A stretch of DNA of 64,000 bases from an uncultured Gammaproteobacteria bacterium (GCA_964522405.1 CAZFTR010000006.1:2430-66429); one strand, 5' to 3'; positions 1,787 through 48,424 are shown, counted from the stretch's first letter. Made by a program: numbers and translations. The notes: a model not told the origin generated them from the sequence alone.

Positions 1787-3079
1787 ATGAACATCCATAT
1801 AAAATCCGCATCCCAACATATCGACCAAGAAGTAACAATTCAAGGCTGGCTAAACAACAAACGTTCATCCGGTTCAATTGCTTTTCTTGAGCTTCGAGAT
1901 GGCTCTGGGTTTATCCAAGCCGTAGTTGCCAAAAATGCAATTGATGAAAAAGTTTGGCAGAGTGTTGAAAAAGCAACCCAAGAAACATCACTCTCAGTAA
2001 CCGGTAAAATCTCTAAACATCCCAAAAAAGAAAATGTTTTTGAACTTCAAGTTTCAGGAATTGAAATAGTTCATATTTCAAATGAGTATCCAATTACCAA
2101 AAAAGAACATGGTCCAGAATTTCTTCTTGATAATCGTCATCTCTGGCTTAGAAGTAAAAAACAATGGGCTGTTCTTCGTCTTCGCCATTTAGTAAAAACT
2201 GGATTTCAAGATTATTTTAATTCCAATGGCTATATTGAATTAGACACTCCAACTTTCACACCAAATGCTTGCGAAGGAACTACTGACTTATTTGAAGTAG
2301 ATTATTTTGGGACTACAGCTTACTTAACTCAGAACGGACAATTATATTTGGAAGCAATGGCCATGTCTTTTGGAAAAGTCTATGATCTTTGTCCAAATTT
2401 TCGTGCGGAAAAATCTAAAACCAGAAAACATCTTACAGAATTTTGGTCGCTCAATCCGGAAATTGCTTTTATAGATCATGAAGAAAGTTTGAAAATTCAA
2501 GAAGAGTGCACAAAGCATATGGTTAAATATGTTCTTGAGCATGGTAAACAGGAATTAGAACTGCTTGAAAGAGATATCTCAGAATTGCAAGCAATAGTAG
2601 ATGGTCAATTTATGCATTATGAATATGCAGACGCAATAGAAGAATTACAAAAACGCGGTTCCAAGATTCAGTATGGAGATGATCTCGGAGCAGAAGATGA
2701 AGTGCTTTTGACAGAAGATTCTCTAGTTCCTGTGATAGTGAAAAATTGGCCAAAGAAGATCAAACCTTTTTATATGAAAGATCATCCAGAAAAAGAAGGA
2801 GTGGTGTTAAATGCCGATGTCTTAGCTTCAAAAGGTTTTGGAGAAATAATCGGCGGATCTCAGCGTGAAGATGACTATGATCTACTAAGATCAAGAATAG
2901 AAAAAGAAGGTTTGGATTTAGAAGTATTTGAATGGTATCTAGATCTTCGAAAATATGGTTCAGTTCCTCATTGTGGCTTTGGAATTGGTATTGAGCGCAT
3001 GACTCGTTGGATGGCTGGTATACATCATATTCGGGAAACAATTCCATTTCCAAGAATGCTTAATCGCATCAAACCCTAA
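1787..3079 (+). CDS. asnS: Asparaginyl-tRNA synthetase (class IIb)
   Basis: 430 aa; motifs TQNGQLYLEA, FRAEKSKTRKHLTEFWSLNPEIAF and GGSQRE...HCGFGIGIER match AsnRS signatures. Confidence 0.8.
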   Translation: MNIHIKSASQHIDQEVTIQGWLNNKRSSGSIAFLELRDGSGFIQAVVAKNAIDEKVWQSVEKATQETSLSVTGKISKHPKKENVFELQVSGIEIVHISNEYPITKKEHGPEFLLDNRHLWLRSKKQWAVLRLRHLVKTGFQDYFNSNGYIELDTPTFTPNACEGTTDLFEVDYFGTTAYLTQNGQLYLEAMAMSFGKVYDLCPNFRAEKSKTRKHLTEFWSLNPEIAFIDHEESLKIQEECTKHMVKYVLEHGKQELELLERDISELQAIVDGQFMHYEYADAIEELQKRGSKIQYGDDLGAEDEVLLTEDSLVPVIVKNWPKKIKPFYMKDHPEKEGVVLNADVLASKGFGEIIGGSQREDDYDLLRSRIEKEGLDLEVFEWYLDLRKYGSVPHCGFGIGIERMTRWMAGIHHIRETIPFPRMLNRIKP

Positions 3080-3207: not shown

Positions 3208-6200
3208 ATGCGTGGGTCCACAAGACACACAATTATGCAGATAAAAACGGCAGTCAAAAAACTACTGCCTAGTAAGCTTAAACGTTATCAAAAAATAGCG
3301 CTTTTTGCGTTCGTTTTGCTTGGATCATTATTTTTTATTTCGAGTGTTGCTCAGGCAGGACAAGGTCCGGTTACTGATCTTATCAATGGTTTAATCAGTG
3401 CTGTATCTTGGATGCTAATTGTTACTGCTCGTATTTGTATTGGTTTTACTATATTTTTCCTAAGATTTTTTATAACTTTGGCCAGCTACAATGATTATAT
3501 AAATGCCGATATTGTTAAGCTGGGTTGGATCATGGTTCGTGATGTGGCCAATATGGGATTTGTAGTGGCTATGTTGGTTATTGCTTTTGCTACAATTCTT
3601 GGAATTGAGCAATATGAATTCAAAAAAGGTCTGGTAAAAGTCATACTGGCAGCAGTATTTATCAATTTCAGTAATTTGATTGCTCAGGTTTTTATTGACG
3701 CAGCACATGTTTTTACAATTACATTTTTAAACGCAATTTCAGTTACAGCAGGTGGTAATCTGATCACCATGTTCCAGCTCGATAAGATGCTGGATTTTGC
3801 TTCGAACAAGCCTCCTGGTGAGCTTAAGTTTGAAGTTCTGGGTGGTTCTATAGTTGCCTTTGTTTTTTCATTTATGGCTATGGCAGCTATGGGAGCCTAT
3901 GTTCTCGTTATGATGCTTCGTGTAGTTTTGCTTTGGGCTCTTATAATTTTGTCACCACTTGCTTATATTTTTGCAGTTTTACCGAAGACTGAGAAATATT
4001 CTCAAGAATGGTGGAAAGAATTTGGAGAGCAGGTCATGGTGGCGCCAATCATGGTATTTTTCCTATGGTTGTCTTTTGCAGCGCTCGGAAGCGGACAAGC
4101 GCTTGAACAAATCAATTCTTCCCCAGGTGCAGTACCACTGAAGATAAAAACCACAACTGACTATTCTGTATCTTTGACCAAAATTTCAACTTGGGAAAAC
4201 ATGGCCAATTTCTTGTTGGCTATAACTTTCATGTATATTGGTATTCAAAAAGTTGGTGAATCAGGCGCTTATGGAGGAAAAATTCTGCAAAATACCATGA
4301 GTACAGCCAAGAAGATCGGAGTTATTGCAAGTGGATATGCCACAGGAAGATGGTTGGTTGGCGGCGCAGCAGATGTCGGTAAAAAAGGTGTAAAAGAAGG
4401 TCTTTATCGACTTCCTCTTGTTGGTGGAGAAAAATGGGAAAGATATGCTAAGACTTTTGGTCATGGAATAAAAGGTATGTACATGGGTAAGGGTTTTGAA
4501 ATTACAGAAAAGGGTGAGCAGATACAGGGGGATTTGCGCGAAGAACAGACATTGGCAAAAGCATTAAAGGCTGGTGGTTCAGAAGCACTGGCTGGAGATA
4601 TAGAAAGATTAGAAGCACAGCAATCGGCAGCTAATATCAATTTAGAGGGTCAAAGAACAAACTTAGAAGCACAAGAGGCCGCTGGAGATATGGTGAATGC
4701 AGAGAAGACTAGAGCAGGTATAGCAGAAACAGAACGTGAGCTCGAAACCATAGAAGGTCATCTTGCAACAAATAAGAGGGTTAAGGAAAGAATTGACCGT
4801 GAAGGTTATACAGCGGATGATGTGGATGAAATTGAGCAAAATATCCAAGATCTGCAAAAACAATTAAAAGGTCAAGTTGGTGGTCGAGGCGGAGGAAGAG
4901 TGAGTGGCCTAATAGGTGCTATGGCTCGCGCCAATATCAAATCTCAAAAACGTCTCGCTAAAACTGAAAGACAGGCAGATGAAAGAAAACAATTACTCTG
5001 GAAAAGAACCGGTTCCCAGGCTGGTGGTTATTTGGTTGGAATGGGTCGTGTCGGTGATGTATACAGAGGAAGAGAAGCACAAGATCGTGTGGAGCGTGGC
5101 TGGCTAGCAGCTGAGTCTATGCGCTCCAAGGCCAAAGATGAAGAGTATGAAACCATGGGAAAAATGGAAGTTCTGGCCAAGCCACGTCTTAAATACAATG
5201 TAAATACTGGAGAGATTACTTATGAAGATACCAAAGGAACTGTAGCAGAGAGAATAGCAGAGCATGAAGTTGGACGTGATCAGTATCAAGATGCAATTAA
5301 GAAGCTGCAAGGTGAGGCAAGATTGAAAATTGTTGCTGATTTTGATGCTAATATGTCAAAATCTAATAATATTTCAGCAGAAATAGATAAATTGAAAAAA
5401 GAATTAGAAAATGTTGATAGTCCGGAATTTGCCAATAAAATTAAAAAGAGAATTGAACAGTTGGAGCAAGAGTTATCAGGTGTGGAGAGGGGAAGTGAGG
5501 AAGGACAGAAGTTGACTGATGAAATTAAAGTTTTTAAGGGTGTTAGAGATTCATTAGCTTTTGCTCAAGCTCAAAAAAATATACAGGATTTAGAAGCTCA
5601 AACCACTGCAGACGGTTTTGACCCAAGTTCTGAGAAGGGTCAGGAAATGTTGCGTGAATTGGAGCGTCTAAGAGAAGAATTTAGTGCAGAAGGTGGAGAA
5701 CAGAAAATACAAAAATGGGAAAGTTGGAAAACAGATCTAGACGATGGAATTCTTCATGAAGAGAGAAGAAGAGAGCAGAATAGAGAGATTACTGAACAAA
5801 AAAGAGAAGAATTGAAAACAGTTACCGATGAAGATGAACGAGCTAGGATTATAAAAATGATCGAAAGAGGAGAGGAGCATGACTCCAAATCTGCTTCAAT
5901 AATTACAGATTTAAAATCTCGACGATCATTACTTGATGATCCTGATAATTTAGATTTGGTTGAAAAAGAAATTGATGCTGCTCAAAGAAGATTCACAGAT
6001 TGGGTTCCAGCTGATGCTGAAGAGGCTGAGGCGTATAGAGCAGAGAGAACTGAGAAAGAGGCAGAGTTGGCGAGGTTGAGAGAAGAATACGCTCCTTTTG
6101 CGGAGGATGATGTTAGGGCTAAAGAATTACAAGAACAAATTTCTCAAAAAGAGGCTCAGTTAAATGGTATTGATATTAATAGCGATGAAGGAAGAGCTCG

Positions 6201-9200
6201 TTTGCAAGCGCAACAAGAATTACCTGAGGATTTAAGGTTGTTGGAGTCCATGGACGGATATATGTATGGTTTGCAATATTATAGAGATTGGTCACAAGCT
6301 AGACATGACTCTCAAGATGAAGATTTAACTCAAGATGAGAGAGATCAAGCTGCTCAGAGATTTGCAGATATGGATGCTGTGTTTACTGATCACAATTCAA
6401 ATGAAAGAAAAGCTTTTAATAGAGTGGTTGGCATTCAAAATGGTTTAAGTGATGAAATCAGAGGTTATGAAGATAGAAAAAGAGAGATTGATACTGAGAT
6501 GCAAGGATTGCAAGCTATAATAGATGATCCAAATGAATCAGATGAAAACAAGGCTACTGCTGCCCAAAGCATAGGTACTTTAAATGCTGAAAAAGCAGAT
6601 ATTGATACCAATCATGCAAGAGCAGAACGTAGACATGGTATGATAGCTGATGTGTTTTCTAATGATGATTTAGATACAGCACTAAATCAAACAATCACTG
6701 AAAAGATAGGGCAACTAGATGAAGCCATTGCAAAACAATTAGTTGATTTTGGTCCTGCCGGTAGAGCTGGAACCGAAAGAGAAATAGAAGATTTGCGTGC
6801 TGAACATACTGAACGGACGGCAGCAAAAAGAACTCAAGTCCAAGCTGCTCGCCAAAGCGCCAAAGCAGCAATCAGTGCTCAGATAGATGATCAACAAGCA
6901 GCACTCAAAAAAGTACAACAAGGCGTTGTCAAGACAATGACCGGTGTAACCTATGGTTCATTCTTACAAACCAAGGCAGAAGCGCAAATAGTAAGCGAAA
7001 TTCTTGATGCAGATGAAAAGAGATTGGTAGAAGGTCAACTTCAGAAGGAATATAATCTTGGTGCTTTGGTTGATGCCGCTGCTTCTCAAGACAATCGAGG
7101 AGATTGGAGTAAGAGTGTGCAAGCGGCTCGTGAAGAAGGAAAAGTAATCGCAGCTGAGATCGATAAAAAAAGAAAAATTGAAATTGGAAATTTTGATAGG
7201 CAGCTTAGCGGTTTACAAGATAAAAGAGGAGAACTGCAGAAGCAGGCTGATACTTATGGAGCTGCTTCTAGAATTGAAAAAGCAATGACCGGGCTTGATG
7301 CCAAAGCACAAGAATTGAGAGATCAGAAAGATGCGGTTGATGCTAGCGCTGACTCTGATCAAAATAAAAAGAAAAAGAAAGATGCTCTTGATAAGCAACT
7401 GGCTGCTCTGGCACAAAACAGACAAAAAATGGCTGATGATTTGAAGAAAGCCACAAAAGATCGAGATAAGCTTGCTGGTGTGGAAAAAGGAATGTCAGAC
7501 GATGAAAAGAAGACGAAGAGAGAAGAAGGTGAGGCTGCCATTAAGACACAATTAAATACTACTGATTCAGACATATTTACTCTTTCTTCAACTATAAAAG
7601 ATAAAGAAAAAGCTTTGGAAGAAACTGATACTTACTGGGCAGAATTGATGCGCAGAAAAAAACAAAATGCAAGAAAGGTAAAAGATGAACAAACCAGCCT
7701 CGATAAAAGGGCTAATCGATTGCGTTCTGGAGACACTGGTGCTGCCAATGAGATCATTGAATCTATTGAAACAGCTCTTAGTGAAGAACAAGCTAAACCT
7801 GTCGCAGCCAGAGATGAAGCAAAAATTGACAAACTAAAAGGTGATCTTACTTCCATGCGCAAGATTAAGTCCAAGATTGGAAGGGCAGGTCTGGCTTGGC
7901 GCTATGGTGTGGCCAAAGGTAAGCAGGCTGATGCTACTCGTGGTTATAAATATGCTCATAATCTCTTGCTTTCAGAAGCAGAACAGAGGGCAATTCATGA
8001 TGAAAGAGGACTTGATACACCGAAATCAACTCTTACTGAACTGATTGAGGAATATGGAAAGAGTTTTGGTGAGATGTCAGTTGATAGTTTTGTAGCCAAT
8101 GCCGGACCTATGCTAACTAAAATGCTCAAGAAAAATAAAGCAGGTACTATGACTGAGCAAGATCGAGCAGCTCTCATGGGACTTTTTAAGCGTGGGTTTG
8201 ATCGAGCTTGGATTGATGACGCTATTTATGCCATTATGGACAATGAAGAAGCCAAAGAATTAATTGGTGATGAGTTGGGATGGACAAATTCAAAGTATTC
8301 TGATGAAAAAGTAAGAGATATTCAAATGCTTTTTGCCACTGGAGCAAATGTTGATTTTGTAAAAGACAATGCTGTGGTAACTTCAATTTCAGATGTTCTT
8401 GAAAATGATCATGGAATTAGAAATACAGAAGAAGTGATGAAGATGATGAGCACAGGTGTTTATTTGGATAAATCAGGTGTGGATGTTAGTCAACAAGTAC
8501 ATGATAAAGTTCGTGAATCAATGGCGTCTACCAATACAAAATTCAGTAGTGAACAAGAACAGAATTTTGTAAATTTCTTTAAGCATCTAGTTAAGGGAGA
8601 TGAGCAGGCATTGCTGGACGTGCAATCTCAGAGAAATAAAATTGTTGGTGGTTGGATGAAAGAAATCAGAGCCAGACAATCAGAAATGCAATATTTAGGT
8701 AATCTGCGTCCGGAAGCCATTGCCAACGGCCACTATGAAAACGCCGGTTGGGCTCTGACCCGTGAAGTTGGTGGTGGTGAATCACTCTATGTAGCTCAGG
8801 GTTTGAGAAGCGCTAGAGCTCATGTGATGGGAGATGTGAGAAAATCAGATGTGCGAACTCGTGCTAAATCTCAGACTCATTCTTGGGCTGATCTGGATGA
8901 GAGAAATGGACAAGTAGTAACCCAGATCAGAGAAGGTCAATTTACAGATACTTTCAATGGTATTGATCCTAGAACTTTTAACAGTATTAACCCGCGTGCT
9001 CGTGTGCATATGATGGGTCTTTCCGGTAGTGATAAATACTCTGATTTTCGAGATGGATCTGATGGTTCATTTACAGCAGCTCGAATGACTGATAGTACCG
9101 GCGCGCTTACCAATGCCGGAAAAACTTGGTCTCAAGAACTTTCTCAGGATAGTGTGTATGGTAGTCATTTCAAAAAAGCCAAAACTAGAGATCGCCAACA

Positions 9201-9534
9201 GGAATTGATGTCAGCCGGTATTATGAATAGGCTCTATGCTCGTGAGATTCGTGGAAATACTCATGGATTCCTCATGCTTGCTGCAGAAGCTGCCGGTATG
9301 GATCCAACCCAGGCAGCGCGTGATGGTAAAATTAATTTTAAAATGTATAATCCCGCAGAAGGAAAAGAAATAAGATATCGAGATGTAAACAGATTGATCG
9401 ATGATTTCAATAGAGGAGATTGGGAAATGGATGCCAATGGAAGATTTAGTAGAAGTTCTAAACCTTCATCTCAATTGCAACATTTCACTCCGTCAAGTGG
9501 AAAGGCAGATGAGGATTATTATCTCGATGAATAA
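3208..9534 (+). CDS. Giant membrane protein: N-terminal TrbL/VirB6-like polytopic domain fused to ~1700-aa charged coiled-coil region
   Basis: 2108 aa; signal peptide plus about 6-7 TM helices in the first ~330 aa, then long E/K/R/Q/A-rich heptad-like sequence; genomic context with PrgI-like and VirB4. Confidence 0.55.
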   Translation: MRGSTRHTIMQIKTAVKKLLPSKLKRYQKIALFAFVLLGSLFFISSVAQAGQGPVTDLINGLISAVSWMLIVTARICIGFTIFFLRFFITLASYNDYINADIVKLGWIMVRDVANMGFVVAMLVIAFATILGIEQYEFKKGLVKVILAAVFINFSNLIAQVFIDAAHVFTITFLNAISVTAGGNLITMFQLDKMLDFASNKPPGELKFEVLGGSIVAFVFSFMAMAAMGAYVLVMMLRVVLLWALIILSPLAYIFAVLPKTEKYSQEWWKEFGEQVMVAPIMVFFLWLSFAALGSGQALEQINSSPGAVPLKIKTTTDYSVSLTKISTWENMANFLLAITFMYIGIQKVGESGAYGGKILQNTMSTAKKIGVIASGYATGRWLVGGAADVGKKGVKEGLYRLPLVGGEKWERYAKTFGHGIKGMYMGKGFEITEKGEQIQGDLREEQTLAKALKAGGSEALAGDIERLEAQQSAANINLEGQRTNLEAQEAAGDMVNAEKTRAGIAETERELETIEGHLATNKRVKERIDREGYTADDVDEIEQNIQDLQKQLKGQVGGRGGGRVSGLIGAMARANIKSQKRLAKTERQADERKQLLWKRTGSQAGGYLVGMGRVGDVYRGREAQDRVERGWLAAESMRSKAKDEEYETMGKMEVLAKPRLKYNVNTGEITYEDTKGTVAERIAEHEVGRDQYQDAIKKLQGEARLKIVADFDANMSKSNNISAEIDKLKKELENVDSPEFANKIKKRIEQLEQELSGVERGSEEGQKLTDEIKVFKGVRDSLAFAQAQKNIQDLEAQTTADGFDPSSEKGQEMLRELERLREEFSAEGGEQKIQKWESWKTDLDDGILHEERRREQNREITEQKREELKTVTDEDERARIIKMIERGEEHDSKSASIITDLKSRRSLLDDPDNLDLVEKEIDAAQRRFTDWVPADAEEAEAYRAERTEKEAELARLREEYAPFAEDDVRAKELQEQISQKEAQLNGIDINSDEGRARLQAQQELPEDLRLLESMDGYMYGLQYYRDWSQARHDSQDEDLTQDERDQAAQRFADMDAVFTDHNSNERKAFNRVVGIQNGLSDEIRGYEDRKREIDTEMQGLQAIIDDPNESDENKATAAQSIGTLNAEKADIDTNHARAERRHGMIADVFSNDDLDTALNQTITEKIGQLDEAIAKQLVDFGPAGRAGTEREIEDLRAEHTERTAAKRTQVQAARQSAKAAISAQIDDQQAALKKVQQGVVKTMTGVTYGSFLQTKAEAQIVSEILDADEKRLVEGQLQKEYNLGALVDAAASQDNRGDWSKSVQAAREEGKVIAAEIDKKRKIEIGNFDRQLSGLQDKRGELQKQADTYGAASRIEKAMTGLDAKAQELRDQKDAVDASADSDQNKKKKKDALDKQLAALAQNRQKMADDLKKATKDRDKLAGVEKGMSDDEKKTKREEGEAAIKTQLNTTDSDIFTLSSTIKDKEKALEETDTYWAELMRRKKQNARKVKDEQTSLDKRANRLRSGDTGAANEIIESIETALSEEQAKPVAARDEAKIDKLKGDLTSMRKIKSKIGRAGLAWRYGVAKGKQADATRGYKYAHNLLLSEAEQRAIHDERGLDTPKSTLTELIEEYGKSFGEMSVDSFVANAGPMLTKMLKKNKAGTMTEQDRAALMGLFKRGFDRAWIDDAIYAIMDNEEAKELIGDELGWTNSKYSDEKVRDIQMLFATGANVDFVKDNAVVTSISDVLENDHGIRNTEEVMKMMSTGVYLDKSGVDVSQQVHDKVRESMASTNTKFSSEQEQNFVNFFKHLVKGDEQALLDVQSQRNKIVGGWMKEIRARQSEMQYLGNLRPEAIANGHYENAGWALTREVGGGESLYVAQGLRSARAHVMGDVRKSDVRTRAKSQTHSWADLDERNGQVVTQIREGQFTDTFNGIDPRTFNSINPRARVHMMGLSGSDKYSDFRDGSDGSFTAARMTDSTGALTNAGKTWSQELSQDSVYGSHFKKAKTRDRQQELMSAGIMNRLYAREIRGNTHGFLMLAAEAAGMDPTQAARDGKINFKMYNPAEGKEIRYRDVNRLIDDFNRGDWEMDANGRFSRSSKPSSQLQHFTPSSGKADEDYYLDE

Positions 9535-9543
9535 AAAATAATT

Positions 9544-10737
9544 TTGGCGCTAATTAAAAATATGTTTTCATTGCCAACTATAATAATGCAACTTTATCCG
9601 GGTAAGACTGAAGAAGAGATTCAGGCTATTTCTGATGCTTGTCTTAGGGGTGGAGCAAATTATTATCACCGAACTTGGAAAGAAGTAAAAAAAGAAGATC
9701 TGGGCAAAGAAGAGGTTATTCTTAATTTGATTCGCACTATTCACACTTCTCAGCATTCATATTGGGGCGGGGTTGACGAAATTATGAGATCATTGGAAGA
9801 ATGGTCAGACGGAATAATTATTTTTGAAGGCCTAAACAAAGAACAAAATGAATTTTATCAGAGATTTTATTGTTTTATTGGATTTTTGAATTTTGCTTAT
9901 ATTGAATTTAAGAGAAAATTATTTTTGCTTGAATCTAGATTTCTTGTTTTGGCCTGTATCTGGGAAATTCCGGTCTATGTCAATGTACAACTTTATTTTT
10001 CCAGATATGCCTTTGTGGAAGGTATGAGAAATGATGCTATTCTCATGGCTGATTCTATTGAGAGAAATTGGGCGCCGGTAGGAGAAGAGGGTAGAGCGGA
10101 ATTAACTGTTGAAGAGTGGGTTAGGAAATTCAATGAAAAACCATTTACTAATTTTGGTGGTAGAATTGATGATTATTTTGTAGATAATTTGGAAGTAAAT
10201 AGATTTGATCAAGGAGTTCAAAATGTTTTGAGAAAAATCTTTACTCTTTATTGGGGGCTTAGATCCGGATCTGTCTGGAGAGAAATTTCAGAAGATTTGC
10301 ATATTGCCGGATATGAAAACAAAAAAGTGAGAGAAAATAAGACTGCAGATCAATATTACTTGCAAATGCTCCAAGAAGCTGATAAAGAAGGATTTCTTAT
10401 CTGGCTCACGAGTTATGATCATTTTGTAGATTGGGTACTTGCTGTTGGAAAAAGTGATGAGTTTATGAATCAATTATTTTATATTCTTACTCAGAAAGTT
10501 GATTTGGATGATGTTGAAGAATTAGGTTATTTTGTAGATTTGATGGAGGCTTTGCAAAAAAATGAATGGTCACTTGGTTCTGATTTGGTTTACTATGATG
10601 AGGAAACTTCAGGTTTTAGATGGAATCAAGACATAATTGAAGCTCTAAAAGAAGAGGTTGAGTATGTAAAATTATATGGAGAAAAACCAAGACCCCAAGT
10701 GTTAACTATGCCTGAGAAATTAGATATAAAAGAATAG
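9544..10737 (+). CDS. Hypothetical protein (T4SS-cluster associated)
   Basis: 397 aa ORF, coding-like composition, no recognised motif. Confidence 0.5.
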   Translation: MALIKNMFSLPTIIMQLYPGKTEEEIQAISDACLRGGANYYHRTWKEVKKEDLGKEEVILNLIRTIHTSQHSYWGGVDEIMRSLEEWSDGIIIFEGLNKEQNEFYQRFYCFIGFLNFAYIEFKRKLFLLESRFLVLACIWEIPVYVNVQLYFSRYAFVEGMRNDAILMADSIERNWAPVGEEGRAELTVEEWVRKFNEKPFTNFGGRIDDYFVDNLEVNRFDQGVQNVLRKIFTLYWGLRSGSVWREISEDLHIAGYENKKVRENKTADQYYLQMLQEADKEGFLIWLTSYDHFVDWVLAVGKSDEFMNQLFYILTQKVDLDDVEELGYFVDLMEALQKNEWSLGSDLVYYDEETSGFRWNQDIIEALKEEVEYVKLYGEKPRPQVLTMPEKLDIKE

Positions 10738-10743
10738 AAAATT

Positions 10744-12246
10744 ATGCCTCCAGCTGTTAAAAAACAGACTCAATCAGCCCAAGGTCCTGTTAATCAGGGC
10801 ATTTTGGTTAAAAAGGCAGACGGTAGTACAGTTCGAGTTTCTTTTGATGAATTTAAAAGACTCAGAGAAAACATTTCTAGGAAACAGCCGGCAGAACAGG
10901 TTGTAGAGCCACCGGCTATACCGAAAAAAAGATCTGAAAAAGTAGCAAAAAAAGTAAAAGATTTTGCAGAAAAAGAACAGATATCTTCTATAAAAGGTCA
11001 ACGCATTGCCAGGAAGAGACCTGGTCTTTTGCAAAAAAAGAGAGCAGTAGCTCCGCCGCAACCTGTTCAGAAAAAGATCGAAGATCAGGTTAAAACCAAG
11101 ATGCCTTTGTCTGATCCAAGAATAATTCGTGCTAGAAAGACCAAAACTGTAGTCAGCAAACCAAAAATTTCAGCTCCAAAATTGACAAAAAAAGATTCTC
11201 TACCTCTTTTGCATGAAAAACTTGAAGAGCAGGATCTGATTGAGAGGGATTTATCTGATATTACAACTCATGATCATATTGTTGACGAAGTTGTGCAAGA
11301 GTTTCCCATGTCAATTGCTCCTGAGCTTCAGATGCGCATGAGATCTCTTATTGTTTCTTTTTTAAGAGGAGTTCGAGATAAGCATCAGTTTCATGAATAT
11401 GCTATACAGGCTGCGGGGAGCGGTGGTATTGGTTTGACTGATGAACAAGCTTCTAGGTTGGTACTTGTTATAGAAAAAAATAGAAAAGAGTATGAAAGTG
11501 GAAAAATAGAAAAAACCAAGAGTCAAGCAAAAAAAGCAGTTTTGAGTAGTAGGCTCAAAGCTCGAGGAGTACCAGTTAAACCTGTTAGCGCTTATAAGCC
11601 AGAAACTAAAAAGATTCAAAAACAAAACCCATCAAAAATTCAAAAAGCTCTTGTCAAAGAACCAATAGATGATCTGGCAACCACAACTCCGCTAGTGGAT
11701 AGTTTTATTGATCAGGCAATTGCCAAGAAGCAGGCAGAAAAAGTTAATGTGGTTAAAAAGGAACCAACAATAGAAGAACAAAAGCCTGAAGCTAGAAATA
11801 TCGATTTAGTAGAAGCTGTAAAAAATATACAATCAAGACCGACTACACCGACCATAAAAACCAGTGTTGTCAATCAAAAGAAAACAAATAAGCTGGTACA
11901 TGATGTTAGTCATATAAGAACAGAGCATAAGACTGTCGGTCCTCAGGAAGAAATGTTGAGATATGCCAAAATTGATTTTAATAGATTAGCCAGTGACCCC
12001 GAGCATGCTGCCAGACGTTTGATTGCTAAGTTTAATGGTTGGAAAGAAGAGTCTTTTATGATGTATCTGCAAGCTAGAGCTGCATGGTTTAAAAGTCCTT
12101 TATACAAACAATTTCAAGACTCTGCGTTGAAGGCTATTAATAAACGTTTAACTATAAAAAAAACAGTTGAAGGTTCAAAAGATCTAGGATTGTCTTTGCC
12201 GGAATTTCTAGCTATTCTTGAGGTAAATAAAGCGCTGGCTTTATAA
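10744..12246 (+). CDS. Hypothetical lysine-rich basic protein (T4SS-cluster associated)
   Basis: 500 aa; long K/P/Q-rich basic low-complexity N-terminal two thirds, structured C-terminus. Confidence 0.5.
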   Translation: MPPAVKKQTQSAQGPVNQGILVKKADGSTVRVSFDEFKRLRENISRKQPAEQVVEPPAIPKKRSEKVAKKVKDFAEKEQISSIKGQRIARKRPGLLQKKRAVAPPQPVQKKIEDQVKTKMPLSDPRIIRARKTKTVVSKPKISAPKLTKKDSLPLLHEKLEEQDLIERDLSDITTHDHIVDEVVQEFPMSIAPELQMRMRSLIVSFLRGVRDKHQFHEYAIQAAGSGGIGLTDEQASRLVLVIEKNRKEYESGKIEKTKSQAKKAVLSSRLKARGVPVKPVSAYKPETKKIQKQNPSKIQKALVKEPIDDLATTTPLVDSFIDQAIAKKQAEKVNVVKKEPTIEEQKPEARNIDLVEAVKNIQSRPTTPTIKTSVVNQKKTNKLVHDVSHIRTEHKTVGPQEEMLRYAKIDFNRLASDPEHAARRLIAKFNGWKEESFMMYLQARAAWFKSPLYKQFQDSALKAINKRLTIKKTVEGSKDLGLSLPEFLAILEVNKALAL

Positions 12247-12314
12247 ATGAGAATAAGTTTATATTTTTTTAAGGAAATGTGTTTTTGGTATATTAAGTGT
12301 GATATAATGTAGGT

Positions 12315-12749
12315 ATGCAACAATTTGTTGTTCCACAATTTATCGATGTAGAAGATAAGATTTTTGGTCCTATTACCATACGACAGTTTATTATTTTATT
12401 GTTTGGTGGACTTTTGATTTTTTTGGCCTTTAGATATGGTGATTTATCTTTGTTTATAACTACAGCAGTTATTGTAGGTGGTCTGTCTCTTACATTTGCA
12501 TTTATAAAAGTGAATGGCCAAACTTTTCATTATTTTTTGCTCAATATTACTCAAACAGCCAAAAAACCATCTCTTAGAATTTGGAATAAAAATTATACCA
12601 AAAAAGAATTAGAGTTTTATAGAAAAGAAGCATCTGATTTTGAACCTATTGAACATATTGAAACCAAAGAAGTAAAAAGAGATAGAATTAGAGATTTGGC
12701 TTTACTTGTAAATACAGGAGGTTTTTACCGTCCAGACGAATATAGCTAG
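12315..12749 (+). CDS. PrgI/VirB3-like small membrane protein
   Basis: 144 aa with two adjacent TM helices, located immediately upstream of VirB4, as in Gram-positive-type T4SS; extended -10 (TGTGATATAAT) upstream. Confidence 0.45.
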   Translation: MQQFVVPQFIDVEDKIFGPITIRQFIILLFGGLLIFLAFRYGDLSLFITTAVIVGGLSLTFAFIKVNGQTFHYFLLNITQTAKKPSLRIWNKNYTKKELEFYRKEASDFEPIEHIETKEVKRDRIRDLALLVNTGGFYRPDEYS

Positions 12750-12753
12750 ATAT

Positions 12754-13446
12754 ATGAAGAACAAAAAAAACAAAAAACAAAAAACAAAAAAACCTTCAAC
12801 TCAGGTTCATTTGCCGATTGCAGAGGTAAAAGACGGTACTGTAGTCCTAAAAGACGGAACTTTGCGAGCTGTTTTGCTTGTTTCCAGTATAAATTTTGCT
12901 CTTAAGTCTGAAGATGAACAGAATGCAGTTATATCAGCTTATGTTGGTTTTTTGAATTCTATTGATTTTCCTTTACAGATTGTTGTTCAATCCAGAAAAT
13001 TACAAATACGACCTTATCTTGAACAATTAGATGAGTTGCAGAAAAAACAAAAAGACAATCAGCTTCTAAGAATGCAGATTGCAGATTATCGTTCATTTAT
13101 CAAGGAGTTGGTTGAAATGGGTCAGATCATGACTAAGAGATATTTTGTGGTGGTTCCTTATGATCCACTTTCAAATAGAAAAAAAAGTTTTTGGAATAGA
13201 TTCAAAGAAGTTGTGAAACCGATTATAAGTATTCGTTTAAAAGAGGAGAGATTTCAAGAGAGAAGAGAGGAGCTAGATTTGAGATTAAGACATGTTAAAA
13301 ATGGTTTATCAAGTATTGGTCTCCGAGTAGAGCAGTTGGATACTCAAACATTGATTGAATTATTTTATGCAACTTACAATCCCGATGTAGGGTTTTCAGA
13401 AACATTGGGAGATGTTGAAGATATAAATATTGAGCGCATGCTCTAA
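12754..13446 (+). CDS. virB4: VirB4/TrbE N-terminal domain (separated from ATPase domain by a single in-frame TAA)
   Basis: 230 aa; motif AEVKDGTVVLKDGTLRAVLLVSSINFALKSEDEQ typical of the VirB4 N-terminal domain; same reading frame as the downstream ORF. Confidence 0.55.
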   Translation: MKNKKNKKQKTKKPSTQVHLPIAEVKDGTVVLKDGTLRAVLLVSSINFALKSEDEQNAVISAYVGFLNSIDFPLQIVVQSRKLQIRPYLEQLDELQKKQKDNQLLRMQIADYRSFIKELVEMGQIMTKRYFVVVPYDPLSNRKKSFWNRFKEVVKPIISIRLKEERFQERREELDLRLRHVKNGLSSIGLRVEQLDTQTLIELFYATYNPDVGFSETLGDVEDINIERML

Positions 13447-13455
13447 AGAATAATT

Positions 13456-15336
13456 ATGGCATTTAAACCTGTAAGTTTTGGACAAGAAGCACCTGAAAAA
13501 AGGCCGTCATTTTTGCGTAAGAAAAAAAGCGAAAAAGAGGTTGAAGAAACTCTGGTAAGTTTGGAAGAAGAGCGATTGTACAGAGAGGGGACAGTGGCTA
13601 TTCGTGATTTGATTGCTCCTTCTGCTTTCAAGGTTGAATCTACTTTTATCCAGCTTGGAAATACATTTTTGCGCACTATTTTTGTAGTAACCTATCCGAG
13701 ATATATTGCAGTTGGTTGGAATACTCCTATTTTGAATTTGAATATTACCATGGATATCAGCATGTTTTTTTATCCTGTGAAATCTACTATTATCCTCAAA
13801 CAACTCAAGAAAAAAGTTGGAGCTATAGAAGCACAGATTTCTGCAGATGCAGAAAAAGGTGCTCCTCGAGATCCGATTCGTGAAACAGCTCTGAGAGATA
13901 TTGAACAGCTTAGAGATGATCTTACTCAGGGAGTTGAACATTTTTTCCAGTACGCTTTTTATGTGACCATTTATTCACAGGACAAAGATGAACTAGACAA
14001 GACTACCGAGGACATTGAAAATATTTTTGGTTCAAAATTAATTTATACCAAAAATGTGCTTTTTCAAGCTGAACAAGGTTTTACTTCTACACTTCCACTC
14101 GGCATAGATGAGTTAAGCATTGCTTTTAACATGAATTCTTCTCCGATAGCAGCTTCATTTCCTTTTGTTTCGTCTGAGTTGACTAGTGATAATGGAATTT
14201 TATATGGTATCAATCGACATAATAATAGTTTAATTTTGTTTGACAGATTTAGTTTGCAAAATGGAAATATGGTAGTTTTTGCTACTGCCGGTGCTGGTAA
14301 ATCTTATGCGATTAAGCTCGAAGTGCTTAGAAGTTTGATGTTTGGAACAGATATCATTGTCATAGACCCGGAGATGGAATACTTGCATCTTGCAGAAGCT
14401 GTTGGTGGTACTTATATAAATATTTCTCTAGGTTCAGATAGCAAGGTGAATCCTTTTGATTTGCCGACCAAGCCGATCGGTGGTGAATCTGCCGAAGATG
14501 TTATCCGAAAAGCTATTAGTACAGTCAAGGGTTTGCTCAAAATTATGTTTTCCGGTTTTACTCCTCAGGAAGATTCTATTTTGGATACAGCACTGAAGGA
14601 AACTTATGCCAAAAAAGACATTACACCATCATCAGATTTTTCAAATGCAGAACCTCCAATTATGCAGGATTTATTGGATATTTTGGAGGGTATGGAAGGT
14701 GCTGAAACCATGGTCCTCAAATTACAAAAATACACAGAAGGTACCTTTTCAGGATTATTTAATTCTCCCACCAATGTTGATATGAACAATCAGCTGGTAG
14801 TTTTCAGTGTGCGTGACTTAGAAGATGAGCTTAGGCCATTGGCAATCTATACTTTGATAAATTATATTTGGGCTTTGGTTCGGTCAGAACTAAAGAAAAG
14901 AATACTGGTAATCGATGAGGCTTGGTGGTTGATGAGACATGAAGATAGTGCCAAATTTATTCATGCCTTGGTCAAACGTTGTCGAAAATACTACCTGGGT
15001 GTTACTACTATTACCCAGGACGTTAATGATTTCTTATTATCACCTTATGGACAAGCAATTATTACCAATTCAGCTGCTCAGCTTTTGATGCGTCAATCTC
15101 CAGCATCAGTTGATTTGGTCAAAAAAGTATTTATGTTGACAGAAGGAGAGAAATATCTTTTACTTGAAGGGGTAGAAGGTGAAGGAATCTTTTTTGCTGG
15201 GAACAAACATGCAGCCATAAAAGTAGTTGCTTCTTATACAGAACATCAACTAATCACATCTGACCCTAAACAGCTTTTAGAGATAGAGCGTTCAAAAGCA
15301 GAATTTAATAAGCAATTCAAAGATCAACAAATTTAA
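13456..15336 (+). CDS. virB4: VirB4/TrbE/CagE-family type IV secretion ATPase (C-terminal ATPase portion)
   Basis: 626 aa; Walker A VVFATAGAGKSYAIK, Walker B LVIDEAWW, conserved VirB4 C-terminal motifs. Confidence 0.8.
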   Translation: MAFKPVSFGQEAPEKRPSFLRKKKSEKEVEETLVSLEEERLYREGTVAIRDLIAPSAFKVESTFIQLGNTFLRTIFVVTYPRYIAVGWNTPILNLNITMDISMFFYPVKSTIILKQLKKKVGAIEAQISADAEKGAPRDPIRETALRDIEQLRDDLTQGVEHFFQYAFYVTIYSQDKDELDKTTEDIENIFGSKLIYTKNVLFQAEQGFTSTLPLGIDELSIAFNMNSSPIAASFPFVSSELTSDNGILYGINRHNNSLILFDRFSLQNGNMVVFATAGAGKSYAIKLEVLRSLMFGTDIIVIDPEMEYLHLAEAVGGTYINISLGSDSKVNPFDLPTKPIGGESAEDVIRKAISTVKGLLKIMFSGFTPQEDSILDTALKETYAKKDITPSSDFSNAEPPIMQDLLDILEGMEGAETMVLKLQKYTEGTFSGLFNSPTNVDMNNQLVVFSVRDLEDELRPLAIYTLINYIWALVRSELKKRILVIDEAWWLMRHEDSAKFIHALVKRCRKYYLGVTTITQDVNDFLLSPYGQAIITNSAAQLLMRQSPASVDLVKKVFMLTEGEKYLLLEGVEGEGIFFAGNKHAAIKVVASYTEHQLITSDPKQLLEIERSKAEFNKQFKDQQI

Positions 15337-15346
15337 TTAGAAAAAT

Positions 15347-15940
15347 ATGTTAACCCTCAGACAAAGAGTTTTTGTGGCAATCAGTATTATTATGGCAGTT
15401 GTTCTTGCTATTGTTTTATTATTTCTTTATAGGAAATCACAAGTACCGACTGAAATAGAATATGATGGTGGAGATCAGCCACTTCAGGCAAGTGAAGAAG
15501 TTGTTAGTGAGACTGAGTTTGAAGTGAGCGGGGGTATATCTGTAATATCTCCAAAACAAGCTATTGAACCGGGCGCGCTTTATGCTCAAAATTTAGCGCG
15601 GGTATTTGTTGAGAGATTTGCAACTTATTCCAATCAAAATAAAAATCAACATATAGAAGATGTAAAGCCCTTAGCAACTGACAGAATGATTAGCTGGATT
15701 GATACACAGAAAATTGAGCAGAATACTAAATATAGCGGTGTTACTACTGATGTTATGAGTATTGAAATACAAGAGCAATCAGAAGAGAAAACAATTGTAA
15801 AAATAAATGCTCAGCAGGTTGTCCGTTCTCAAGTTGATGGACAAGTTGGTCTGTCAGAAGAAATTATTCAGAAAAAAGCCAGAGTTGAACTTATAAAACA
15901 AGCTGGAGAGTGGAAAGTAGATGGATTTTTTTGGGAATAG
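15347..15940 (+). CDS. Membrane-anchored hypothetical protein (single N-terminal TM; possible VirB8-like role)
   Basis: 197 aa, N-terminal TM then soluble domain; position after VirB4. Confidence 0.35.
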   Translation: MLTLRQRVFVAISIIMAVVLAIVLLFLYRKSQVPTEIEYDGGDQPLQASEEVVSETEFEVSGGISVISPKQAIEPGALYAQNLARVFVERFATYSNQNKNQHIEDVKPLATDRMISWIDTQKIEQNTKYSGVTTDVMSIEIQEQSEEKTIVKINAQQVVRSQVDGQVGLSEEIIQKKARVELIKQAGEWKVDGFFWE

Positions 15941-15974
15941 ATTTTTTGGTCATAGTATATTTTAGGAGGGACTT

Positions 15975-16700
15975 ATGAATTTAAAAAAATATTTTAAAAC
16001 ATTTTTGTATTTATCAAAAGAGGCTTTGTTTCCTCTTTTTTGTATCTCTTGTTCAGCTGAGGGTGATATTTTATGCCAGACTTGCTACATAGCCCTTGAG
16101 ACATATGCTGTTTTTGCCTGTCCTGTTTGTGGTCTCAATAATAATACAGGAGAGGTTTGTAAAAAGTGCTTGTCAGATTCATTTCTACAAAAACATCTTG
16201 CTCTTGGTAGATTTTCAGAAGATTCAATAATACAAAAATTATTGTATGAATATAAGTATAATTATGTCTTGGATATTTTGAAAATTTTTGAGAAATTAAT
16301 TGATAATTTTATTGATAGATATAAGAGTTTTTTTCTTGAAATTGATTTTATTGTTTCAGTTCCACTTCATAGGAGGCGTTTTGCAGAAAGGGGATTTAAT
16401 CAAGCAGATGACCTTGCTTTGGTTTTAGCTTCTAAGATTGATCGGCCTGTCTTGGATTCAGTCTTAAAGAGGATTGTAAATACTTCTCAACAAGCCAAAT
16501 TAACCAAGACCGAAAGACAGAAAAATATAGATAGCGCTTTTGTTATAAACCAAAAAAATTCTCTAAATTTAGCCAATAAATCATTATTGTTAGTTGATGA
16601 TGTTTTAACCACTGGCTCAACTATGCAAGCTTGTGCCAGGCAGTTCAAGGATAATTTCAAGGCAGTTAAGATACGGGCATTTACCTTGGCTAGAGGTTGA
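15975..16700 (+). CDS. comFC: ComF family protein (ComFC-like phosphoribosyltransferase)
   Basis: 241 aa; N-terminal CxxC...CxxC zinc finger and C-terminal PRTase motif LLLVDDVLTTGSTM. Confidence 0.7.
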   Translation: MNLKKYFKTFLYLSKEALFPLFCISCSAEGDILCQTCYIALETYAVFACPVCGLNNNTGEVCKKCLSDSFLQKHLALGRFSEDSIIQKLLYEYKYNYVLDILKIFEKLIDNFIDRYKSFFLEIDFIVSVPLHRRRFAERGFNQADDLALVLASKIDRPVLDSVLKRIVNTSQQAKLTKTERQKNIDSAFVINQKNSLNLANKSLLLVDDVLTTGSTMQACARQFKDNFKAVKIRAFTLARG

Positions 16701-16753: not shown

Positions 16754-16840
16754 GGAGAGATGCCTGAGTGGTTGAAAGGGGCACCCTGCTAAGGTGTTGT
16801 ATCCTAACGGGTACCGAGGGTTCGAATCCCTCTCTCTCCG
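16754..16840 (+). tRNA. tRNA-Ser (anticodon GCU)
   Basis: Acceptor GGAGAGA/TCTCTCC, anticodon loop CTGCTAA, long variable arm, T-loop TTCGAAT. Confidence 0.8.
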
Positions 16841-16896
16841 CCGGGCTTTGCCCAGATGTTTTGCACATTGAATAGTTGAATTTTTGTTAAAATGGT

Positions 16897-16986
16897 GGAG
16901 GGATGGCAGAGCGGTTGAATGCGACGGTCTTGAAAACCGTTGTCCGTGAAAGCGGACCAAGAGTTCGAATCTCTTTCCCTCCGCCA
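16897..16986 (+). tRNA. tRNA-Ser (anticodon UGA), CCA encoded
   Basis: Acceptor GGAGGGA/TCCCTCC, anticodon loop CTTGAAA, long variable arm, T-loop TTCGAAT, 3' GCCA. Confidence 0.8.
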
Positions 16987-17822: not shown

Positions 17823-18287
17823 ATGAAACCTAATATACAGCCTGATAATAGTGATGCTTTTGCAATGTTTTTTAAGACTATTGCTCCTGGTGGCAAAGCG
17901 TCAATGTCAGCTTTTCCCACAAAAGCGCCTGAATCTTGGGATATATCCCAAGAAGAGGGGAAATTGGCAGTAGATATTGCCCAAACAGATGACAAAATTA
18001 TGGTAGTGTCCACTATGGCCGGTTCACTTGTAGACAGCATAGAAGTTTATGTCCAAAACGATGTTCTTACTATCAGAGGTGAGCGAGTTTCTCCAGTAGA
18101 GCTTAGTGAAGAAATAAATTATATCCACGAAGAGTGCTTTTGGGGGAAATTTTCTCGTACTATTGTTTTGCCTTCAGAAGTAAAAGGTGAATTGGCAAGT
18201 GCAGAATTCAAAAGCGGAATATTAAAGATAGAAATACCGAAAAGAAAAACTGATAATAAGATTCCAGTTATTGTAGTAGAAGAGTAA
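17823..18287 (+). CDS. Hsp20/alpha-crystallin family small heat shock protein
   Basis: 154 aa; alpha-crystallin domain with C-terminal ...GILKIEIPKR motif. Confidence 0.75.
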   Translation: MKPNIQPDNSDAFAMFFKTIAPGGKASMSAFPTKAPESWDISQEEGKLAVDIAQTDDKIMVVSTMAGSLVDSIEVYVQNDVLTIRGERVSPVELSEEINYIHEECFWGKFSRTIVLPSEVKGELASAEFKSGILKIEIPKRKTDNKIPVIVVEE

Positions 18288-18296
18288 AAATGATTT

Positions 18297-22458: not shown

Positions 22459-22862
22459 GTGGACCTCCTTTCTCCTTGTTTTGTCCACGCTTGTTCACGC
22501 CATCATCTGACCGTCTTCGAAGTTGAGGTCGGTCGCGAAGAGCGCGAAGAAGCAGGTGGCGAACATCATGCCTGTGGCCCAGCTGTCCGGAGTCAGCACC
22601 GAGGCGCAGAAACCGAAGGACAGCATCAAGTGCATCCAGCTCCTGTTCCTAACCAGGATCCAGGCCAGCATAATGCCGAGGAAGATGACCACGACGCTAA
22701 TCAGGATCTGTCCGATGGGCGGATTGCCGGTTGCTGCCACGATGAGCTCGGGCAGGATCAGGCCGATGAGGGCCATGACGAACGCTCCAGCCTGAGCGTT
22801 GGCATTATCAGAGTCCATTTTCCCTCCCAGGATCTCTCATTGACCCTTAAAGAACCCTAGCA
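22459..22862. other. High-GC island 2 (compositionally foreign segment)
   Basis: ~60% GC block between nrnA and smc; one ORF with strong RBS. Confidence 0.6.
22495..22818 (-). CDS. Small polytopic membrane protein (3-4 TM), GC-rich foreign ORF
   Basis: 107 aa hydrophobic; GGGAGGG Shine-Dalgarno 4-5 nt upstream of ATG on minus strand. Confidence 0.45.
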   Translation of the reverse strand: MDSDNANAQAGAFVMALIGLILPELIVAATGNPPIGQILISVVVIFLGIMLAWILVRNRSWMHLMLSFGFCASVLTPDSWATGMMFATCFFALFATDLNFEDGQMMA

Positions 22863-48312: not shown

Positions 48313-48350
48313 AAAAGCACCCCCTGAATTACTTCAGAGGGTGTTTGATT
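48313..48350. terminator. Bidirectional intrinsic terminator-like hairpin (accccctgaa-ttac-ttcagagggt + TTTGATTTTG)
   Basis: Seen directly. Confidence 0.4.
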
Positions 48351-48424
48351 TTGAGTGCCCGCCGTCCGTGTCGCTCGGGGCAGGCGCGGGGGCGGGGTGG
48401 GGAGGAGGGAATGGTGGTGGGGGC

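Follow-up and report, generated by a model that had tools for sequence, protein, structure and literature searches.

A chromosomal type IV secretion operon of Magasanikbacteria with an extended VirB6-type protein and a terminal comFC gene

An eight-gene operon conserved in Magasanikbacteria

We analyzed a 64,000-nucleotide stretch of a contig deposited as an uncultured Gammaproteobacteria bacterium (GCA_964522405.1, CAZFTR010000006.1:2430-66429; hereafter the window, with positions counted from its first letter), in which a first-pass annotation had reported a type IV secretion system (T4SS)-like cluster adjacent to the competence gene comFC. The cluster is real, and an identical gene order occurs in ~80 other genomes, a recurrence that, by sequence comparison, places the clustering of these genes far beyond chance. 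It consists of eight open reading frames (ORFs) between positions 3208 and 16700, all on the plus strand. Since neighbours are separated by merely 4-68 nt, the region reads as one operon. When we re-examined all eight ORFs, their coordinates and order agreed exactly with the first-pass annotation, and each component named there is backed by hidden Markov model, profile-profile or fold evidence. The operon is bounded upstream by an asnS/aspS gene (1787-3079) and downstream by two tRNA genes. The features, with the evidence on which each is based, are as follows (aa, amino acids; AF2, AlphaFold model).

3208-9534, plus strand: extended VirB6/TrbL-like protein, 2108 aa, probable assignment (Pfam matches of homologues, AF2 fold)
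3208-4263, plus strand: VirB6 membrane domain, aa 1-352 (hydropathy, AF2 helices, loop charges in 28 homologues)
4264-4497, plus strand: Gly/Lys-rich basic juxtamembrane segment, aa 353-430 (charge counts)
4498-7887, plus strand: charged helical spacer, aa 431-1560 (composition, periodicity)
7888-9534, plus strand: C-terminal globular domain B6_C, 548 aa, aa 1561-2108 (exhaustive homologue search, AF2)
9544-10737, plus strand: soluble 397-aa protein, TTG start as listed (ORF)
10744-12246, plus strand: 500-aa protein of three modules, no transmembrane segment (family alignment)
12315-12749, plus strand: PrgI/VirB3-like protein with two transmembrane segments, 144 aa (PF12666)
12754-13446, plus strand: TrsD-like protein, a detached VirB4 N-terminal domain, 230 aa (NCBIfam profiles)
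13456-15336, plus strand: VirB4 ATPase of the CD1110/Gram-positive type without N-terminal domain, 626 aa (NF045971)
15347-15940, plus strand: PrgL/VirB8-like bitopic protein, 197 aa (hhalign against pCF10 PrgL)
15975-16700, plus strand: ComFC, double zinc ribbon and phosphoribosyltransferase fold, 241 aa, last gene of the operon (Pfam)
16754-16986, plus strand: two tRNA-Ser genes (GCT, TGA), downstream boundary of the operon

VirB4 has at least 584 relatives in the GTDB species genomes. The best 80 of these are 69-84% identical to it and overwhelmingly labelled Magasanikbacteria or unclassified Patescibacteria. Judged by these relatives, the source genome is therefore a member of the Magasanikbacteria, class ABY1, and not a saccharibacterium. 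Many other public metagenome-assembled contigs that bear the operon (L005-L008, L013, L015, L017 and others) are likewise titled "uncultured Gammaproteobacteria bacterium", and of L009 and L078 one is titled Candidatus Nomurabacteria and the other Candidatus Methylomirabilis. VirB4 is 70-82% identical in these mislabelled-looking contigs, and their titles are probably placeholders or mis-binned taxonomy labels.

For comparison we used 82 loci from species-level genomes, mostly labelled Magasanikbacteria. The conserved order, on one strand, is VirB6 - variable region - 500-aa protein - PrgI - TrsD - VirB4 - VirB8-like protein - ComFC. VirB4 was present in all 82 loci, TrsD in 81, PrgI in 78, the 500-aa protein in 74, the VirB8-like protein in 70, ComFC in 69 and the VirB6 N-terminal region (VirB6-N) in 61, with missing parts mostly explained by contig ends. 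Housekeeping flanks are conserved as well: asnS lies upstream in 8 loci, and hsp20 and vanW lie downstream in 16-17. In the window, the latter two genes (17823-20294; the second encodes a VanW/PG_binding_4 protein of 665 aa) follow ComFC and the tRNA genes, and are thus syntenic with the T4SS operon in those 16-17 relatives. Proteins carrying a VanW domain act on the cell wall.

An ancient split of the VirB4 ATPase

The 626-aa protein matches NF045971, "VirB4-like ATPase, CD1110 family", with 349 bits against a cut-off of 325, over profile positions 176-730 of 752, and P-loop_TraG (PF19044) at 2.6e-27; its P-loop (ATAGAGKS) and Walker B (ILVIDE) motifs are intact. It also weakly matches the archaeal DNA importer CedB (NF041017; 2.4e-14, 52.9 bits against a cut-off of 700), and no CedA-like genes of the archaeal Ced system were identified. 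The 230-aa protein encoded immediately upstream covers the missing part, matching positions 11-117 of NF045971 and positions 90-234 of NF045975 (7.9e-13). Its match to the TrsD model NF041427 (2.5e-8) is below that model's cut-off, and its orthologues carry the precomputed family PF26593, "TraC-like". Together, the two ORFs tile one VirB4, so that the split VirB4 proposed in the first-pass annotation is correct. The smaller ORF had been recognised there as an N-terminal fragment of VirB4, its identity as TrsD being a result of the present analysis. No other T4SS component is as abundant in Patescibacteria as this detached piece, termed TrsD (PMC12102498). The PrgI/VirB3-like call for the gene before it holds too, with PF12666 matched at 1.3e-8 (35.7 bits, cut-off 27) and transmembrane segments at residues 20-38 and 46-64.

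The 230-aa and 626-aa ORFs share a reading frame, parted by a TAA codon (13444-13446) and 9 nt. However, the two VirB4 halves are always separate ORFs in the 78 loci examined and share a frame in only 22 of them, which is about chance; a distant Patescibacterium, with its locus near dnaA, also has the split. The in-frame TAA is therefore neither a recent pseudogenising stop nor a read-through site, both of which we ruled out by this comparison. The split of VirB4 is ancient.

A VirB8-like protein followed by ComFC

The first-pass annotation described the gene after virB4 as encoding a single-transmembrane protein, which it does, and did not recognise it as PrgL/VirB8-like. The protein has an N-terminal transmembrane segment (residues 8-26), an acidic linker and an NTF2-like C-terminal domain, with weak matches to NTF2_YvbJ, TraE, DUF4878 and SnoaL_4. 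We aligned profiles of VirB6-N, the VirB8-like protein, the 500-aa protein, the 397-aa protein and B6_C with 22 proteins of the pCF10 transfer region using hhalign. The sole scoring pair was the VirB8-like family and PrgL (81.8% probability, E 1.1e-5, 103 columns). The position of the gene, after virB4, is equivalent to that of prgL in pCF10, where prgK intervenes. The same profile gave no alignment with F-plasmid TraE and nothing against PDB sequences, and a tblastn search of plasmids with the protein found no match.

ComFC is supported by Pfam domains above cut-off (Pribosyltran, 38.3 bits, cut-off 26.3; DZR_2, 28.2 bits, cut-off 27). It matches TIGR00201 (comF) at 2.3e-27 and 96 bits, below the trusted cut-off of 233.55, and GntX was matched as well. 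Among the 67 loci with at least 1.6 kb of sequence downstream of virB4, ComFC lies within 2.5 kb on the same strand in 62 (93%), in keeping with the adjacency noted earlier for the window. The distance from the VirB8-like stop codon to the ComFC start is centred on 0-5 nt (median ~3 nt), with many overlaps. Such abutting or overlapping frames fit co-translation of the two proteins. The linkage has been seen before, as comF, recG and radA are commonly found in ABY1 T4SS loci (PMC12102498).

An extended VirB6-type protein with a conserved C-terminal domain

The operon opens with a giant protein of 2108 aa that we consider a probable rather than a proven VirB6, on the basis of homologue matches and a predicted fold. 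The earlier TrbL/VirB6 call is supported indirectly: the window protein itself has no direct Pfam or NCBIfam match, and support came from its homologues and from structure prediction. Pfam TrbL (PF04610) is matched by 10 of 28 homologues of aa 1-400 (best 1.6e-6); these homologues come from Patescibacteria (Magasanikbacteria, Komeilibacteria, Parcubacteria), and one carries the NCBI name "type IV secretion system protein". An AlphaFold model of the N-terminal part (pLDDT 78, pTM 0.71) has as its top five PDB fold matches five TrwI/VirB6 chains of the R388 T4SS (E 2.7e-3 to 2e-2, probability 0.94-1.0, TM-score 0.28-0.44). The VirB6-N profile returned only coiled-coil noise against PDB sequences and did not align with pCF10 PrgH in hhalign.

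The membrane domain has a basic N-terminus, a signal-peptide-like first helix ending in VAQA-GQG, and then about six to seven hydrophobic helices; invariant residues include N115, F118, R238, P250, P259 and P280. It is followed by the basic juxtamembrane segment, in which K+R outnumber D+E by 13 to 4 in the window protein; over the aligned part of the segment (aa 352-400) the 28 homologues average 10.8 against 2.5. This segment and the basic N-terminus are the only clear topology signals of the protein. By the positive-inside rule they suggest that the 1750-aa extension beyond the membrane domain should be cytoplasmic, a placement that we regard as quite likely.

The first 1130 aa of the extension after the juxtamembrane segment form a spacer that is 38% charged and rich in E, A, D, K, R, L and Q, with 10 prolines, no cysteine and patchy heptad periodicity. 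Except for a single 29-nt array, its DNA contains no tandem repeats. The spacer diverges quickly between genomes and is recognisable in only 11 of the 82 loci. The C-terminal domain, B6_C, is modelled with high confidence (pLDDT 94.2, pTM 0.90) and has invariant residues D110, D111, W132, R274, H282, K319, H331 and R370 (domain numbering). Nonetheless, neither its fold (PDB, best E 0.05 and TM-score <0.2; BFVD) nor its sequence (Pfam, NCBIfam and PDB sequences, profile search included) found a match. An exhaustive search of 1.84 billion proteins yielded 72 cluster representatives of B6_C, and in ~40 of these the domain forms the C-terminal end of a VirB6-type protein 1000-1970 aa long. A protein identical to the window VirB6 was also present in the public protein data (P0034). 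An H-x-H that includes the invariant His331 in many homologues led us to consider whether B6_C is an HUH relaxase, and we found no support for this: the first His is not conserved, the window protein reads T-H-S at this position, and the fold hits did not include any relaxase.

Extended VirB6 proteins are the rule in this Magasanikbacteria-type clade, with lengths of 830-2100 aa as the norm. Complete VirB6 ORFs in 57 relatives range from 487 to 1873 aa, with a median near 1080, and the window protein is the longest of the 58. By sequence, the C-terminal regions of these 58 proteins form at least 18 clusters. B6_C is common to one major, long type (1256-2108 aa) and missing from one major short type (910-1303 aa). 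In three loci (L010, L039, L061) part of B6_C (residues ~126-344) occurs as its own ORF just downstream of a shorter VirB6, at ~4.2-6.4 kb in each locus. Such fusion or fission of VirB6 and part of B6_C supports a functional link between the two. The same subdomain of B6_C is also found in free-standing proteins of 480-760 aa (P0084, P0088-P0103) that have no Pfam family.

Examples of extended VirB6 proteins are the Rickettsiales RvhB6 paralogues and TraG of the F plasmid. The class has been characterised by at least five hydrophobic helices and a large central or C-proximal hydrophilic domain (Alvarez-Martinez and Christie 2009, as cited in PMC12857230), the role of the hydrophilic extensions being described as "not yet known" (PMC12857230). 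The window protein has this build, with about 7-8 hydrophobic helices in aa 30-351 and then a very large C-proximal region of 1757 hydrophilic residues. It differs in the makeup of that region, a 1130-aa charged helical spacer and a 548-aa domain restricted to a clade within the CPR (candidate phyla radiation), and no relation to the extensions of other extended VirB6 proteins was detectable.

Two further proteins are encoded between VirB6 and PrgI. Of these, the 500-aa protein is a regular part of the operon and occupies this position in 74 of the 82 loci. Its three modules, connected by Pro/Lys-rich linkers, are marked by an N-terminal motif (ILVKKADGTxxRVxLxEF), a central motif (RLxSLIxSRLKDxR...GGLGL) and a C-terminal domain of ~100 aa (GPxEE..DFRRLS..ES..AW..SPLY); it had no match in Pfam, NCBIfam or PDB sequences (profile search included), or to any pCF10 T4SS protein. 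The 397-aa protein, also with no match in Pfam or NCBIfam, has homologues in only 7 of the 82 loci, all of which also encode B6_C. By their predicted features and distribution, both are lineage-specific, cytoplasmic proteins.

Relation to known systems

Loci of this type, including the comF linkage in ABY1, were described by Quinonero-Coronel et al. (2025, Microb Genom; PMC12102498). In that survey the VirB4 proteins of Patescibacteria form a monophyletic clade related to MPF_FATA; TrsD, PrgI/VirB3 and VirB6 are encoded near virB4; VirB8 homologues occur almost only in ABY1; relaxases are essentially absent; and type IV coupling proteins (T4CPs) are usually encoded at a distance from virB4. 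The window locus has a CD1110-type VirB4, a separate TrsD, PrgI and a PrgL-like protein, and it is chromosomal, with no adjacent relaxase and with comF nearby as in ABY1. The first-pass annotation's Gram-positive/CPR-type minimal T4SS is thereby borne out. We conclude that the locus is very probably a chromosomal, non-conjugative T4SS of the Patescibacteria clade, belonging to Magasanikbacteria, and a minimal cytoplasmic-membrane translocon derived from MPF_FATA machinery.

The window shares with the published ABY1 arrangement a chromosomal virB4, trsD, prgI/virB3, virB8-like gene and comF and, probably, virB6, with no adjacent T4CP gene. Where that survey reports comF as "commonly" nearby, it is the terminal gene of the operon in 62 of 67 loci here, and whereas VirB2-like pilin genes are frequent near virB4 in other classes, none was seen beside the window cluster. 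Neither the large size of VirB6, nor its C-terminal domain, nor the conserved 500-aa protein is mentioned in that paper, and the words "extended", "coiled" and "Magasanik" do not occur in its main text. Relative to the literature that we searched, the norm for VirB6 length, the B6_C domain and the conserved 500-aa protein are new.

As relayed in PMC12857230 and PMC12102498, transposon sequencing in Southlakia epibionticum (Saccharibacteria) showed the T4SS to be essential for epibiotic growth (Wang et al. 2023, Cell), so that the first-pass annotation's description of such loci in Saccharibacteria as functionally uncharacterised no longer fully applies. According to these sources, Southlakia is a monoderm CPR bacterium with a non-conjugative system that includes VirB3, VirB4, VirB6 and TrsD; the window system shares these parts, VirB6 probably. 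It has an essential array of six VirB2-like pilins as well as peptidase and lysozyme genes downstream of virB4; with regard to VirB8, structure-based homology found none (PMC12102498), whereas a VirB8-like component is listed in PMC12857230. Neither pilin array nor hydrolase is present in the window, which does encode a PrgL-like protein, ComFC and a giant VirB6-type protein.

Similarity to the conjugative Prg/Pcf system of pCF10 (MPF_FATA) lies in the CD1110-type VirB4, PrgI and the PrgL-like protein, and the order VirB6-VirB3-VirB4-...-VirB8-like parallels prgH-prgI-prgJ-prgK-prgL. The separate TrsD is shared with the pGO1 Trs subclass (PMC12102498). However, the window lacks a PrgK-type hydrolase, the PrgA/B/C adhesins, the PcfC T4CP and the PcfG relaxase, its VirB6 is eight times the length of PrgH (266 aa), and the locus belongs to the core chromosome and is not carried by a plasmid.

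The ComB system of Helicobacter pylori, a T4SS that serves DNA uptake with ComFC acting downstream, as reported in PMC9005727 and PMC12857230, resembles the window system in being free of relaxase and T4CP, and may resemble it in function. ComB differs in belonging to a diderm, in having VirB2, VirB7, VirB9 and VirB10 homologues, and in moving DNA only into the periplasm; comFC lies outside the T4SS operon in H. pylori and inside it here. Only equivalents of VirB3, VirB4, VirB8 and, probably, VirB6 are encoded in the window; genes for an outer-membrane core are missing, as a monoderm would lead one to expect. By analogy, the window system may work like ComB without being a member of that group.

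Chromosomal context of the operon

We scanned ORFs of at least 100 aa across the 64 kb for protein families. No VirD4/T4CP, FtsK-like, relaxase or integrase family was found among them, which agrees with the lack of VirD4 and relaxase reported in the first-pass annotation. That annotation had allowed that a full conjugative module nearby would change its interpretation, and none was found within the window. The rest of the window is ordinary chromosome, with recO, clpP, smc, lysA, dapF, rpsP, pheST and dnaE, as well as tsaD, rplJL, mreB and ribBA. Overall GC content is ~35%, the cumulative GC skew climbs steadily, and the GC content of the cluster (0.33-0.40) is near that of most of the window. 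With neither coupling protein nor relaxase in the window, and given the housekeeping context, the locus is neither an integrative and conjugative element (ICE) nor a plasmid. It belongs to the core chromosome and is vertically inherited rather than mobile.

Promoter-like sites occurred at background levels (45 versus 40.5 expected), and terminator-like sites were about twice as frequent as expected, yet weak and scattered; no operon boundary was derivable from either. The gene recO lies 2.2 kb upstream of the operon and, together with the weak CedB match of VirB4, is a further pointer for the import reading given below.

A patch of high GC content lies between recO and asnS (51% at 1001-1200 and 67.5% at 1201-1400, against ~35% for the genome). 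It has long ORFs on both strands over 1050-1500, including a 97-aa ORF with two transmembrane segments on the minus strand (1193-1486), and gave no Rfam or Pfam match. In the relative L008, asnS follows recO with a short gap at most, so that the patch looks like a small foreign insertion. An aspartokinase gene (26432-28069; AA_kinase and ACT domains, GTG start) sits in a 2-kb block of 52.8% GC that extends to ~28600, with lysA and dapF, both of normal GC content, directly downstream; it is probably a horizontally acquired member of this lysine-pathway cluster. Long overlapping ORFs on both strands, as in the high-GC patches, also occur at 22459-22860, 48341-48877 and 51652-52191. The 2-kb blocks around 48-52 kb have 42-43% GC. 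One stretch contains a PG_binding_1 domain protein (51742-52152, minus strand, 1.6e-10), and the other two had no family; a DUF6899 protein (48949-49215, minus strand) is adjacent, and an Rfam search of the patches returned nothing. That several such patches occur in a genome with a possibly DNA-importing T4SS may be suggestive. Elsewhere in the window, a 492-aa protein without any family match (32423-33901) and a 759-aa protein with a below-threshold beta-propeller match (53992-56271, minus strand) could possibly be surface or host-interaction proteins.

A possible route for nucleic-acid import

Our best overall explanation, to which we assign a probability of roughly 60%, joins the very probable identity as a Patescibacteria-clade T4SS with a more tentative mechanism, in which a VirB4-driven channel would bring DNA into the cell and pass it on to ComFC. 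The gene identities, the operon structure with its conservation and vertical inheritance, and the lack of conjugation genes in the window are shown by the data; what is transported and in which direction, where the VirB6 extension lies and whether ComFC is physically linked are inferred, as follows. VirB4, with TrsD as its missing N-terminal domain and PrgI as its anchor, would power a VirB6/VirB8 channel in the single membrane, through which nucleic acid from an attached host or from the surroundings would enter. ComFC, made from the same transcript, would receive and handle the incoming single strand in the cytoplasm, as it does behind ComB in H. pylori. The VirB6 extension, probably cytoplasmic, would place the conserved, enzyme-like 548-aa domain at the channel entrance. 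Because ComFC takes part in the transport and handling of single-stranded DNA in the T4SS-using H. pylori, as reported in PMC9005727, and is tightly coupled to the operon here, we favour nucleic-acid import with hand-off to ComFC as the function, although tentatively and at somewhat less than even odds. The role of the T4SS in Saccharibacteria was called "completely unknown" in a 2024 perspective, which proposed it as a route for nucleotide or DNA uptake by analogy with ComB (PMC11665869). The uptake or cell-contact role put forward in the first-pass annotation matches such proposals (PMC12102498, PMC11665869, PMC12857230).

Several points weigh against this interpretation. Deletion of comEC in Southlakia, the one Patescibacterium tested, abolishes competence and leaves viability unaffected, whereas the T4SS is essential (PMC12857230), so that the essential role there is not ComEC-dependent transformation. 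Neither a VirB2-like pilin nor a VirB1-like hydrolase is encoded next to the cluster. The VirB6 assignment rests on modest TM-scores and homologue matches, and loop charges in the middle of the membrane domain are mutually inconsistent, such that the extension could instead be extracellular. Linkage of comF is reported for ABY1 only (PMC12102498), and the distant locus L002 lacks it; genes can remain neighbours without being functionally coupled; and the normal partners of ComFC, ComEC and ComFA, are both missing from the window.

The reading that we rank second, and consider somewhat unlikely, reverses the direction of transport: the system would be a contact-dependent exporter of effectors, or an attachment or feeding conduit into the host, with ComFC a mere syntenic neighbour. 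For the saccharibacterial system, the alternative speculation in print is effector delivery (PMC11665869), and the essentiality of that system does not depend on ComEC (PMC12857230). An exporter would also suit the strong variation of VirB6 beyond its membrane domain (18 C-terminal clusters, fast-diverging spacer), which could reflect adaptation to different hosts if that region is exposed, and the restriction of the 397-aa protein to loci with B6_C. However, we saw no candidate gene for an effector, an adhesin or a pilin within the operon or next to it; the segment that follows the last helix of VirB6 is strongly basic, which speaks for a cytoplasmic location of the extension; and ComFC is adjacent in 93% of loci, with frames that overlap or abut, a closer arrangement than casual synteny would give. 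A functional conjugation apparatus that exports DNA, relying on a coupling protein and an unrecognised relaxase from elsewhere in the genome, is very unlikely. The machinery does descend from conjugation systems, and VirD4-like T4CP homologues occur in most Patescibacteria genomes, usually far from virB4 (PMC12102498). Yet relaxases are found in only 103 Patescibacteria genomes, with 15 of 109 relaxase genes near virB4, and the distant T4CP is non-essential in Southlakia while other T4SS genes are essential (PMC12102498); furthermore, the locus is core-chromosomal in ~80 species with housekeeping flanks, and no relaxase (MOB) gene is among the ORFs scanned. Still less credible is a decaying ICE beside tRNA-Ser in which the stop between the VirB4 halves is a pseudogenising mutation, despite the shared frame of these ORFs and the two tRNA genes right after the cluster. 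The split is found in all 78 loci, with a shared frame in 22, and in a distant Patescibacterium; all genes are intact, with VirB4 70-84% identical across species and its P-loop and Walker B kept; and there is no integrase, with composition near that of the rest of the genome. The tRNA-Ser region has no direct repeat of at least 12 nt upstream of the cluster, only one reverse-complement 12-mer, and this lack of an att-like repeat together with the conserved synteny rules out an ICE inserted at tRNA-Ser.

Since this type of locus has already been catalogued, our analysis confirms it and adds detail, and is not a discovery. What it contributes is a quantified coupling to ComFC and two conserved components without annotation, above all the confidently modelled B6_C fused to VirB6. 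Both B6_C and the 500-aa protein are targets for structural and interaction studies, and the position of ComFC as the last gene of the T4SS operon in more than 90% of related genomes is a testable clue favouring import. In a more far-reaching form of the import hypothesis, which we regard as rather improbable, the ABY1 T4SS would be a dedicated, ComEC-independent machine for nucleic-acid import, with ComFC as its built-in receiver and with VirB6 tethering an enzyme-like 548-aa domain that acts on the substrate together with the 397-aa and 500-aa proteins. If true, the system would be the first example in a monoderm of a T4SS with a physical coupling to competence proteins, and would provide ultra-small epibionts with a route to nucleotides.

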